A stretch of DNA of 64,000 nucleotides from an uncultured Gammaproteobacteria bacterium (GTDB taxonomy: Bacteria > Patescibacteriota > Microgenomatia > UBA8517): the NCBI GenBank assembly GCA_964541395.1, contig CAZIPM010000004.1, positions 1,188-65,187 of the forward strand, in the 5' to 3' direction. Each line of letters starts with the position of its first letter. The stretch's first letter is position 1. Position numbers and translations under genes: made by a program. The notes under the pieces were generated by a model. That model was not told the origin of the DNA. It saw only the letters and a list, made by a program, of their open reading frames with translations, and searched no databases. Positions 13,927 to 62,327 of this stretch are shown piece after piece.

Positions 13927-14874
13927 TTAACAAGTATAAATCGAAGACTGATTGCATCTGGGACAGGTTATGGTTCCACCGGCTATGGTTGCGGTAACTT
14001 TTTGTTGACAAAATGGACATGTACACTCTAAAAACCTAACTCCCTCGGGCGTGTTGAAACTTACAGAATTAGACTCAATCAGACTTGAATAAGTTCCACC
14101 ACCACCAACACAGGTCAGTGCGTTTTCTCCCATTACACCAAGTTTGGCCATCTCCTGAGCAATATAGTATGACGGAGCGCGATTTACTAATAATTGACCA
14201 AGATATAGTCTGGTTTCTGGAGTCATTGGCACATAATTTTTATTTTTAGGTACATATACGGAAATAGCTTCCAAGATATCAACAACAGAAACAGTTTCTC
14301 CAATATCTATCAGTGTGCATCTAAGTTCTTCAGGAGATTTCATGCCTGTTGTTTTTGATGGAAAGAGTTTTTGGGCAATTAATAGAACTTCTTCGCGAGA
14401 ACACTTAAAGATTATGAGAGTATTATGTAGAATTCTTTGACCTGCAGGAGATTTCTGTATTTCATGAATGACAAGTTTATTGTCCGGATATTCTTTCTCA
14501 TTATTAAGTTCGGTACTTATCCAAGCTGAAACCGTGCTCTGAGGTTTAGAACTCCACGCATCTAATTGAGAAATTATTGAAAATTCAACAAGTCCTAAAT
14601 ACGGGTTCCTGTGTGACTCGGGAGTTATGATATCGTGTATATATTTTCCCGTTGCGGGATCTACAATTCCCCATTTGTCTACCCAGAAAAAATATTTATC
14701 CGGTTGTCTGTTGGATTCTTTGTGAATGGAATCGATATGCAATACGGCTGTTTGGATATTGGGAGCCTCTACATATCTATACGCTGCTACTGTTCTGACA
14801 TTTCTTTCAAGTGACATATTCCTGCTCGGGTTTCTATGGGAATTGTTAGTTTTCCGACTATACGGTTGCGGCAC
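13927..14874 (-). CDS. hypothetical protein with C-terminal zinc ribbon
   Basis: CTCPFCQQ...CPRCNQ at C-terminus; no other motif. Confidence 0.45.
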   Translation of the reverse strand: MPQPYSRKTNNSHRNPSRNMSLERNVRTVAAYRYVEAPNIQTAVLHIDSIHKESNRQPDKYFFWVDKWGIVDPATGKYIHDIITPESHRNPYLGLVEFSIISQLDAWSSKPQSTVSAWISTELNNEKEYPDNKLVIHEIQKSPAGQRILHNTLIIFKCSREEVLLIAQKLFPSKTTGMKSPEELRCTLIDIGETVSVVDILEAISVYVPKNKNYVPMTPETRLYLGQLLVNRAPSYYIAQEMAKLGVMGENALTCVGGGGTYSSLIESNSVSFNTPEGVRFLECTCPFCQQKVTATIAGGTITCPRCNQSSIYTC

Positions 14875-14949
14875 AGCTGGGGAATTTCACCCCATTCCTT
14901 AAACACAATCCTTAAACGTAATTACAATTTATGTTAAACTTTTTGTAAA

Positions 14950-58664: not shown

Positions 58665-58737
58665 GGCCCGGTAACTCAGTGGTCAGAGTGCCGTCCTTAT
58701 AAGACGGAAGTCGATGGTTCGAGCCCATCCCGGGCCA
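58665..58737 (+). tRNA. tRNA-Ile (anticodon UAU)
   Basis: Cloverleaf folded by hand: GGCCCGG acceptor, perfect anticodon stem CCGTC/GACGG with loop CTTATAA (TAT), T-loop TTCGAGC. Confidence 0.8.
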
Positions 58738-58741
58738 CATT

Positions 58742-61093: not shown

Positions 61094-61131
61094 CAAGAAA
61101 GACTTAGATTCATTTATATACATCATGCTTG

Positions 61132-61205
61132 TGCCAGCGAGAGGGATTGAACCTCTGACCTCAGCGTTATGATTGCCGCGCTCTAACCAACTGAGCTACG
61201 CTGGC
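61132..61205 (-). tRNA. tRNA-Met (anticodon CAU), elongator-type
   Basis: Acceptor GCCAGCG/CGCTGGC, D-arm GCTC-AGTTGGTTA-GAGC, loop ATCATAA, T-arm AGAGG-TTCAATC-CCTCT; G1:C72 paired. Confidence 0.8.
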
Positions 61206-61674
61206 CTATTTCAGATAATGCGTTTATCTGAGCCATGATTTTATAACAAAGTTCACCAGGTTTCAAAACTTTAATTCTAAGAGTGCCATAATGTTCATTG
61301 AAATTTTCGTATACTTTATGTAATTTCACCTTTTTAAAACTAGTTTTTCTAAACTGTGAGAGTGGAATATTTATTAAGTTTGACCAATACAATTTAACTA
61401 TATCCTCTCTTTTTTTATGTATTTCATTAATTCCTAATGTCGCTGATAAGCGATTTTTATTAATTCCATAGCAATTATTTAACCAATGAATTAAAAAATT
61501 AATTAACTTAGGATCAGAATTACAAATACTAACTTCTCTTCTTGTCTTTGATCCTTCTCCCCAATATAGACAAAGCCCTGATAGCAATAACTCCCTGTTT
61601 TTTAAGGATTTTAGGTCTGATAAGGCGAGTCGCTTATATGTTTCTTCAAGTCTAATTCTTCGTTGCTTTTGCAT
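61183..61674 (-). CDS. LAGLIDADG-type homing-endonuclease-like protein (single-motif, I-CreI-sized)
   Basis: KNRELLLSGLCLYWGEGS aligns to I-CreI NKEFLLYLAGFVDGDGS; last 7 codons run into the tRNA-Met gene. Confidence 0.5.
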   Translation of the reverse strand: MQKQRRIRLEETYKRLALSDLKSLKNRELLLSGLCLYWGEGSKTRREVSICNSDPKLINFLIHWLNNCYGINKNRLSATLGINEIHKKREDIVKLYWSNLINIPLSQFRKTSFKKVKLHKVYENFNEHYGTLRIKVLKPGELCYKIMAQINALSEIGQRSSVG

Positions 61675-61879
61675 TAAAGCGCCTTTTTAGTCTGCCCAAT
61701 TCTGTTCCAACTATCCAATTTCTTCGAATCTTTTCTAATTGTTCAACTGTTAATATAATGTCTCTTACCCATAAACTTACAGTGCTTTTTGCCACACCAA
61801 GCTCTGTAGCTATGGTTTTTACACTAACTCCCTTTCTTCTTAACTCTCTAGCCTTAATTTTTTGTTGAGTTTTAGCCAT
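61652..61879 (-). CDS. helix-turn-helix DNA-binding protein, possibly the frameshifted N-terminus of the endonuclease
   Basis: KARELRRKGVSVKTIATELGVAKSTVSLWVRD HTH; overlaps the next ORF by 23 nt in another frame. Confidence 0.45.
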   Translation of the reverse strand: MAKTQQKIKARELRRKGVSVKTIATELGVAKSTVSLWVRDIILTVEQLEKIRRNWIVGTELGRLKRRFNAKATKN

Positions 61880-61927
61880 ACCAGCGGTATGTATATAATC
61901 CTTTAATTATCCAGTGGTTCGAACTTG

Positions 61928-61956
61928 TTGTCAAATAGGTATTACTAAGATATAAT
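61928..61956 (+). promoter_or_regulatory. candidate promoter TTGTCA-17-TATAAT for the intron-containing tRNA
   Basis: Consensus -10 TATAAT at 61951-61956, ~25 nt before tRNA position 1. Confidence 0.45.
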
Positions 61957-61980: not shown

Positions 61981-62264
61981 TGCGGGGTAGTGTACGGCTG
62001 CACGCAAGGCTTAACAAAATGGGCCACTCTGATTTTCATTAATCAGGTGAAACTTAGCTGTATCGGGGAACTCCTTATTAAAAAGGACAATCCCGAGGCA
62101 ATCCTTTAGAGTTATTATGAATAACTTGCAGGGCGAGTCCGTAGAGACTAAACGCTAAGGCATGGTTTTATTAAACCTAGCAAGATATAGTCCGGCACTC
62201 CTAGTAATTGGAGATTACAGAAATGCATAATCTTGCAGGCTGGGTTCAACTCCCAGCCCCGCAA
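61981..62264 (+). tRNA. tRNA (anticodon CAU after splicing) interrupted by a group I intron
   Basis: Exons 61981-62011 and 62226-62264 fold as a tRNA; U1:A72. Confidence 0.75.
62012..62225 (+). ncRNA. group I self-splicing intron (214 nt, ORF-less)
   Basis: P1 GGCU|...GGCC with U.G at splice site; P10 AUG:CAU; P2 CUGAUU/AAUCAG; R AGUCCGUAGAGACUAAACG (62136-62154); S AAGAUAUAGUCC (62182-62193); terminal omega-G at 62225. Confidence 0.8.
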
Positions 62265-62272
62265 CACAAAGT

Positions 62273-62300
62273 AAAATCCGCCAGAAATGGCGGATTTTTA
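62273..62300 (+). terminator. intrinsic terminator after the tRNA 3' exon
   Basis: AAAATCCGCC-AGAAAT-GGCGGATTTTTAT. Confidence 0.7.
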
Positions 62301-62327
62301 TGTTTTAAGTTAAACTATTAAATAATC

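Follow-up and report, generated by a model that had tools for sequence, protein, structure and literature searches.

A group I intron between positions 33 and 34 of a probable initiator tRNA(CAU) gene, with a linked and broken mobile HTH gene upstream

The tRNA(CAU) gene at 61981-62264 of the window (the whole stretch of 64,000 nucleotides that was analysed, to which all positions refer) is interrupted by a 214-nt group I intron, inserted between U33 and C34. We hold with high confidence the reading as a whole, namely that a group I intron occupies site 33/34 of a tRNA(CAU) which is probably an initiator, and that a linked, broken mobile gene carrying an HTH domain lies upstream of it. The identity, boundaries, structure and family of the intron are established directly in what follows, as are the insertion of the gene, its frameshift and its linkage; the chemistry of splicing is inferred. 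The intron is one more member of a recently catalogued class, of which both the position and the host have already been published. The features of the locus are collected in Table 1.

The sequence was searched with the Rfam covariance model Intron_gpI (RF00028), which matched positions 62002-62214 of the plus strand with 59.6 bits (gathering score 50, E = 1.4e-12) and was covered end to end (model positions 1-253). This is the search that the first-pass annotation, made from the letters of the DNA, had asked for, and its outcome bears out the group I assignment made there. In default mode ARAGORN did not detect the split tRNA gene at 61981-62264; run with the intron option (-i), it returned tRNA-Met(cat) i(32,214), that is, a tRNA(CAT) with a 214-nt intron. 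Owing to the short D loop, position 32 of the gene corresponds to canonical position 33. Joining the two exons yields a clean 70-nt cloverleaf with the 7-nt loop CU-CAU-AA, and together with the ARAGORN intron-mode call this agrees with the earlier statement that the exons form a canonical tRNA(CAU). The final 4 nt of the 5′ exon provide the exon side of P1, and the gene does not encode CCA.

The insertion point is further defined by an empty-site allele. L125, a close relative (TrpRS 78% and XerC 75% identical) with an uninterrupted tRNA gene, aligns with the window as far as 62011, and the alignment continues from 62226, which fixes both intron boundaries at the level of the DNA. A 5′ junction shifted by one nucleotide, after U62012, was considered and rejected; with it the anticodon loop would have 8 nt, and the L125 allele contradicts it. 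Insertion at U33|C34, as first proposed, thus stands on the ARAGORN split call, the alignment across 62011|62226 and the 8-nt loop produced by the shifted junction. The lengths given earlier for the exons and the intron (31, 214 and 39 nt), together with the lack of an ORF within the intron, proved exact.

Table 1. Features of the split tRNA(CAU) locus and its surroundings, in window coordinates.
Feature	Position	Strand	Remarks
Second tRNA(CAU)	61131..61205	-	G1-C72, standard D arm; probably elongator Met
Frameshifted mobile gene	61183..61879	-	N-terminal HTH_23, long helix, unclassified C-terminal domain of ~150 aa
Promoter-like site	61928..61956	+	TTGTCA-17 nt-TATAAT, 11/12; -10 ends 24 nt upstream of tRNA 5′ end
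tRNA(CAU) 5′ exon	61981..62011 (31 nt)	+	Acceptor 5′ strand UGCGGGG, short D arm, anticodon stem 5′ half, C32-U33
Group I intron, without ORF	62012..62225 (214 nt)	+	Rfam score, helix assignment, covariation, MFE fold, empty-site allele
P1	GGCU 62008-62011 / IGS GGCC 62022-62025	+	U62011.G62022 wobble at 5′ splice site
P10	Guide AUG 62019-62021 / 3′-exon CAU 62226-62228	+	
P2	62026-62034/62041-62048	+	
P3	62053-62058/62154-62159	+	
P4	62063-62068/62091-62096	+	
P5	62072-62076/62083-62087	+	
P6	62097-62098/62139-62140	+	
P6a	62102-62105/62130-62133	+	
P6b	62110-62114/62122-62126	+	
P7	62144, 62146-62150/62188-62193	+	GACUA/UAGUC
P8	62161-62168/62173-62180	+	
P9	62198-62203/62208-62213	+	GUAA loop
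omega-G	G62225	+	Terminal base of the intron
tRNA(CAU) 3′ exon	62226..62264 (39 nt)	+	Anticodon CAU, A37-A38, 3′ anticodon stem, 4-nt variable region, T arm, CCCCGCA, discriminator A
Intrinsic terminator	62273..62306	+	11-bp stem AAAATCCGCCA/TGGCGGATTTT, 4-nt loop, T-rich tail (stem-loop 62273-62298)

The architecture of the intron was examined by covariation. Helices P1 to P10 were assigned in the window sequence, after which 45 distinct related introns were aligned using MAFFT. Over all helices, 83% of the cells were paired, compared with 31-47% when the partner strands were slid by 1-3 columns, and the observed covariation was reached by none of 500 shuffles. P1 was 99.4% paired, with the U.G at the splice site present in all 45 introns, and P10 was 94% paired. 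P3 (99.3% paired) was changed on both sides in five of its six pairs and P9 (99.6%) contained compensatory pairs at four of six, while P4, P6 and P7 were paired throughout (100%), P7 being invariant and P4 showing one compensatory pair out of six. The pairing of 39-76% seen for P2, distal P5, P6a and P8 carries no information, because these elements vary in length and are poorly aligned by MAFFT. No column that is constant in the alignment of the 45 introns, omega-G among them, is altered in the window copy. Moreover, an MFE fold of the window sequence on its own recovers P1, P2, P3, P4, P5, P6a/b, P8 and P9 (z = -3.39). P1, P10, the R and S elements, P7, the other helices, omega-G and the small size all match the description given in the first-pass annotation.

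In all 45 introns the 5′ strand of P7 is separated from P3′ by 2 nt, and there is therefore no P7.1 or P7.2. P2.1, P5abc and P9.1 are also absent, with P5 and P9 forming single hairpins. The layout is thus minimal, as in small tRNA introns such as that of Azoarcus, and fits the architecture of subgroup IC3; we describe it as IC3-like. In a recent survey (Nakagawa et al., 2026; PMC13011429), no Patescibacteria tRNA intron was scored best as IC, and guanosine-dependent self-splicing is demonstrated there for 35/36 introns only.

The window copy has some oddities. Its L2 loop is UUCAUU, whereas around 40 of the 45 relatives carry a GNRA tetraloop at this point; P8 departs from the family consensus and P6 is extended. 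P6b is unusually long, and its loop AUGAA (62117-62121) is complementary to UUCAU of L2 (62035-62039), a match expected by chance with a probability of ~0.006 for that pair of loops and of ~0.06 over all pairs of loops. The complementarity may represent a kissing contact which replaces the L2 tetraloop-receptor contact, or it may be a coincidence.

The changes in L2 and P8 would fit a decayed, non-splicing relic, with the split tRNA a pseudogene and the tRNA supplied by another gene elsewhere; the frameshift already present in the neighbouring mobile gene, and a visible genome that amounts to 64 kb only, could be read in the same way. We consider this very improbable, however, as the copy keeps all invariant core columns (U.G, guide, P7 with its bulged A, J8/7 and omega-G) and every helix pairs in its own sequence. 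Furthermore, the exon cloverleaf is flawless and differs from those of relatives by compensatory changes only, a promoter and a terminator are present, and the same sequence occurs in several independent assemblies.

The split gene is bracketed by expression signals. The promoter, previously called perfect, matches at 11 of 12 positions, and such sites are no commoner in the region than in shuffles; its -10 box and the CAC that follows are conserved at equal distance in relatives. The intrinsic terminator, in turn, was recovered as described, with a strong stem-loop followed by a T-run. The region 61906-61956 contains a divergent pair of promoter-like sites, each 11/12, whose -35 hexamers overlap: TTGTCA (61928-61933) on the plus strand faces the split tRNA, and TTGACA (61934-61929) on the minus strand faces the HTH gene and the second tRNA-Met. 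Transcription of the split gene would proceed from its own promoter to the intrinsic terminator. Exogenous G would then attack after U62011, held in P1 as a U.G pair with the guide GGCC, whereupon the guide AUG would align the CAU of the 3′ exon through P10 and omega-G62225 would enter the G-site in P7. Ligation of the exons would give the 70-nt tRNA with the loop CUCAUAA.

Several characters of the host tRNA point to an initiator. In its acceptor stem, GCGGGG/CCCCGC, and in A73 it agrees with canonical initiators. C1 opposite A72, the hallmark of bacterial initiators, is found in 53 of 112 family members, and U1-A72, as in the window, in 59; at a Paceibacterota locus (L005), A1 stands opposite A72. 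An ordinary tRNA(CAU) with G1-C72 adjoins the split gene in nearly every locus and a tRNA-Ile(UAU) is close by, so that elongator Met and AUA decoding are each served by another gene; since tRNA-Ile(UAU) covers AUA, only two CAU tRNAs are needed. To judge by these features, the host is probably the initiator of this lineage, which would place the intron in the classical 'tRNA-fMet 33/34' setting. The Met 33/34 introns of Patescibacteria would then be united with the classical tRNA-fMet intron and with the copies in Omnitrophota and Planctomycetota.

It is unlikely that the host is instead an elongator tRNA-Met, which would set its Met 33/34 intron apart from the classical fMet one. This assignment would agree with U1-A72 and the elongator-like U11:A24 of the window tRNA, with an anticodon stem AGG/UCU rather than GGG/CCC in all 112 members, and with the label 'Met' given to the orthologous host on the basis of its best intron-less homologue (Nakagawa et al., 2026; PMC13011429). 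It sits poorly, however, with the mismatches opposite A72 in the 53 members and in L005, with the initiator-like acceptor stem and with the ordinary G1-C72 tRNA(CAU) next door. Moreover, the same intron lineage, guide and junction occur in textbook initiators of Omnitrophota and Planctomycetota.

The tRNA-Ile with anticodon UAU lies at 58665-58738 of the window (plus strand, 70.1 bits), and dozens of related loci have it as a conserved neighbour. Such a tRNA is uncommon in bacteria, and its presence suggests that AUA may be read in this lineage without a lysidine-modified tRNA-Ile2.

The site itself is well documented. Williams (2020; bioRxiv 10.1101/2020.01.27.920355) listed four classical bacterial settings, Leu.3Ug, Arg.5Ug, fMet.2Ug and Ile2.5Ug, where '2' denotes insertion after the second loop nucleotide, that is 33/34, and found 5292 split tRNAs. 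Nakagawa et al. (2026; mSystems, PMC13011429) described 33/34 in tRNA-fMet as a common intron site, reported Met(CAU) introns at 33/34 from GCA_001029755.1 and GCA_013426185.1, both of them genomes of Microgenomatia (their Table 1), and printed the sequences in Table S3. The insertion point, which had been presented as unusual, is thus the classical fMet.2Ug, already published in Microgenomatia. Nor are such introns rare outside cyanobacteria, plastids and a few proteobacteria, as had been suggested, given the 5292 split tRNAs, the group I introns in ~40% of Patescibacteria genomes (Nakagawa et al., 2026; PMC13011429), and our own scans, in which the same setting was found in Omnitrophota, Planctomycetota and Patescibacteria.

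A core-plus-junction pattern scan of species-representative genomes, which demanded exact core strings and recovered no cyanobacterial copy, gave 34 loci, 21 of which were resolved as tRNA(CAU) split at 33/34. Textbook initiators (CGCGGGG...CCCCGCAACCA) from Omnitrophota, Planctomycetota and others accounted for 16 of the 21. The tRNA type of the window was found in the other five, from Levybacteria, Woesebacteria, Paceibacterota and two MAGs labelled Gammaproteobacteria. The introns in textbook initiators and that of the window have the guide and the junction GGCU|CAUAA in common.

Metagenomes were scanned using the 3′ exon, and at least 120 loci with the window-type tRNA were obtained. Among the 120 listed, 72 are uninterrupted and 48 (~40%) bear an intron at the same site; mapping gave lengths of 180-248 nt for 42 of these introns, another two were resolved afterwards and four are truncated. 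Junctions were mapped by splicing every candidate site and re-scanning, because the intron mode of ARAGORN miscalls several relatives as Leu(caa). The split initiators of L002, L003, L009, L012, L031 and L160 were called tRNA-Leu(caa) in this way, with an intron after 37 or 38, and the same annotation artefact is tabulated by Nakagawa et al. (2026; PMC13011429). The miscall will conceal the 33/34 class in automated surveys. The intron belongs to a large family polymorphic for presence and absence, and this polymorphism (~40% carriers), together with clean empty sites in close relatives, argues for ongoing gain and loss.

Two contigs deposited as 'uncultured Gammaproteobacteria' MAGs, L024 (CAZWNZ010000001.1) and L032 (CAZTGB010000005.1), carry the Patescibacteria-type tRNA and intron, L024 with the HTH gene in addition; these MAGs are likely mis-binned or mislabelled. 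The window itself is assigned to Patescibacteria of the Microgenomatia type, on the identity of its tRNA and intron with those of GCA_001029755.1 and of the Woesebacteria and Levybacteria loci, and on the names given for the sources of homologues. Elsewhere in the window, an AdoCbl-II (cobalamin) riboswitch aptamer was detected at 14840-14911 on the minus strand (44.4 bits, gathering score 36.5); the Patescibacteria genome that carries it appears to be reduced.

Upstream of the split tRNA, the mobile gene of the window appears as two overlapping minus-strand ORFs of 75 aa (HTH_23) and 163 aa (no Pfam match), the homologues of which are single intact proteins of 225-250 aa. A single additional A in the run at 61684-61688 shifts the frame between codons 64 and 65, and an independent assembly has this frameshift too. 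The gene sits within an insertion of ~742 nt (61209-61950) that is absent from L125. Its family comprises 426 clusters at 90% identity in a word-indexed search, and 3089 at 50% identity with E <= 1e-10; all members with a named source are from Patescibacteria, and their annotation is limited to HTH.

The first-pass annotation had reported a LAGLIDADG-like ORF 100 bp upstream of the tRNA. Its position holds, the ORF starting 101 nt from the tRNA, but it is part of a single frameshifted gene for which LAGLIDADG is unsupported. No LAGLIDADG profile was among the 25 commonest of the 69 Pfam families matched by 57 members, nor was one found in 10 distant members; searches of the family in PHROGs and NCBIfam likewise gave no LAGLIDADG match, and hhalign against I-CreI returned a probability of 0.05. 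The family does share a motif, G-L-x-L-Y-W-G-E-G-S-K (invariant G101, L104, Y105, W106, E108 and G109), which aligned with the GLYVAEGDK motif of I-DmoI at a weak E of 0.18. The LAGLIDADG label, having only this motif resemblance behind it, is not supported.

The stop codon of the HTH ORF falls 23 nt inside the co-oriented second tRNA(CAU) (61183-61205, minus strand). The overlap recurs in L162 (3168-3190, 23 nt), L164 (3170-3190, 21 nt) and L160 (3151-3160, 10 nt). The stop codon of the mRNA would therefore be lost when RNase P processes the tRNA, which might act as a brake on expression of the HTH gene.

The HTH gene is strongly linked to the intron. It lies upstream and divergent, 48-122 nt from the 5′ end of the split tRNA, in 18 of 35 intron-bearing loci compared with 2 of 50 intron-less loci (Fisher p = 4e-7), the count being limited to loci whose upstream sequence is 800 nt or longer. 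The association is found within the two main tRNA-sequence types (9/17 against 1/20, and 7/15 against 0/19; CMH p = 4e-6), and the pattern is present in both XerC-identity groups. When sampling started from the protein, five of six loci had an adjacent Intron_gpI match of 59-90 bits. In relatives without the HTH gene, a second tRNA(CAU) lies head-to-head with the split tRNA at a distance of ~50 nt; where the gene is present, it fills this tRNA-tRNA spacer or, in another arrangement, the spacer to DivIC. Its position relative to the split tRNA is fixed irrespective of what flanks the other side, and the gene is thus a mobile insertion at a fixed spot. A series of decay can be followed from intact copies through frameshifted ones (the window, L049 and L088) to a 31-aa remnant (L079). 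This linkage to a large mobile gene family is apparently unreported. Free-standing genes are nowhere mentioned by Nakagawa et al. (2026; PMC13011429), who inferred limited mobility because the introns lack ORFs.

Collaborative, or trans, homing is the convergence of an ORF-less intron and a free-standing endonuclease on a single site (reviewed in PMC3984707), and by analogy this offers a plausible explanation for the linkage of gene and intron. The HTH gene would be a candidate free-standing homing gene whose target would be the uninterrupted anticodon arm, and in the window the homing cycle would have reached its decay phase. As a natural inverted repeat, the anticodon arm would suit a dimeric DNA enzyme; double-length fused members exist in the family. 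Tentatively, then, the HTH family may represent a novel type of free-standing homing endonuclease, whose cleavage site would be the pseudo-palindromic DNA of the anticodon arm in an uninterrupted initiator tRNA gene. The ORF-less 33/34 intron would protect this site and would spread with it through co-conversion.

The chances are about even that the HTH gene is rather a selfish or regulatory DNA-binding gene which inserts beside tRNA genes, its link to the intron reflecting shared history or co-transfer of the segment. The searches made assigned no nuclease family, fold or motif to the gene, and paralogues occur beside the intron-less tRNA-Ile(UAU). Furthermore, the gene is cleanly absent from 17 of the 35 intron-bearing loci, and among intron-less loci three have intact copies (L126, L129 and L159) while a fourth, truncated locus (L087) keeps at least part of it. 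Three of these four gene-bearing intron-less loci have non-majority anticodon stems, four loci being too few for a conclusion on immunity of the target site.

Were the collaborative homing proposal to be true, it would place such homing in cellular chromosomes and on an essential tRNA gene, and would account for the common yet patchy occurrence of ORF-less tRNA introns in tiny genomes, against the published inference of limited mobility. Should the HTH protein prove to be a nuclease, the mobility of ORF-less tRNA introns in bacteria would have a concrete, testable mechanism, and the family might become a fresh source of DNA enzymes with sequence specificity.

Two further arrangements were noted in the family. 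The paralogues at tRNA-Ile(UAU) lie ~1.5-1.8 kb downstream of the split tRNA in L053 and ~6.1-6.4 kb downstream in L066, and some family members are of double or triple length, two or three copies of the unit being fused (proteins P0205, P0211, P0226, P0230, P0245). L161 (1224-2357) is arranged differently: its tRNA(cat), with a 281-nt group I intron, points the same way as the HTH gene, and ~0.5 kb farther upstream there is a small GIY-YIG ORF. This one tRNA locus may hold two kinds of candidate homing gene.

Among known systems, collaborative homing is exemplified by F-CphI with the psbA intron of cyanophage and by T4 mobE with I-TevIII (PMC3984707). These cases concern protein-coding genes of phages, with cleavage shown at the insertion site, whereas the host in the window is a cellular tRNA gene and the putative nuclease belongs to an unclassified family.

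The intron of Azoarcus tRNA-Ile(CAU), of subgroup IC3 and setting Ile2.5Ug, is likewise without an ORF, similar in size and built from the same set of helices. It measures ~205 nt and has tetraloop contacts. The two introns are alike in their R and S sequences, in the GNRA loop L9 and in the direct joining of P7 to P3′. They differ in that the Azoarcus intron follows position 36 and that of the window position 33, with a different guide as a consequence, and the contact between a GNRA L2 and P8 seen in Azoarcus is probably missing from the window copy.

With the classical tRNA-fMet intron of cyanobacteria, fMet.2Ug (Williams, 2020), the window intron shares the U33|C34 site in a CAU tRNA, U-1, omega-G and a small IC3-like architecture. 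The window host, in contrast, is a divergent tRNA of initiator type, with a short D arm, U1-A72 and one of the three G-C pairs. Some of the classical introns encode a PD-(D/E)XK endonuclease, PF11645 (Nakagawa et al., 2026; PMC13011429); the window intron has no ORF, and the candidate for its mobility is a gene outside the intron, from another family that is unclassified.

Among the closest known systems are, further, the Met(CAU) 33/34 introns of Patescibacteria, in which the junction GGCU|CAUAA is shared and P1-P4 and P7′-P9 are nearly identical to those of the window. In the study describing them the host was called 'Met', no adjacent free-standing gene was reported and mobility was concluded to be limited (Nakagawa et al., 2026; PMC13011429). 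The intron of GCA_001029755.1 (190 nt) is 68% identical to that of the window (214 nt) and the intron of GCA_013426185.1 (216 nt) 61% identical; compared with these two Microgenomatia introns, the window copy differs in P8, its P6 (P6a/P6b) is longer and its L2 is not of the GNRA type. The host tRNA of GCA_001029755.1, finally, is 96% identical to that of the window, from which it differs by one compensatory pair and one further base.
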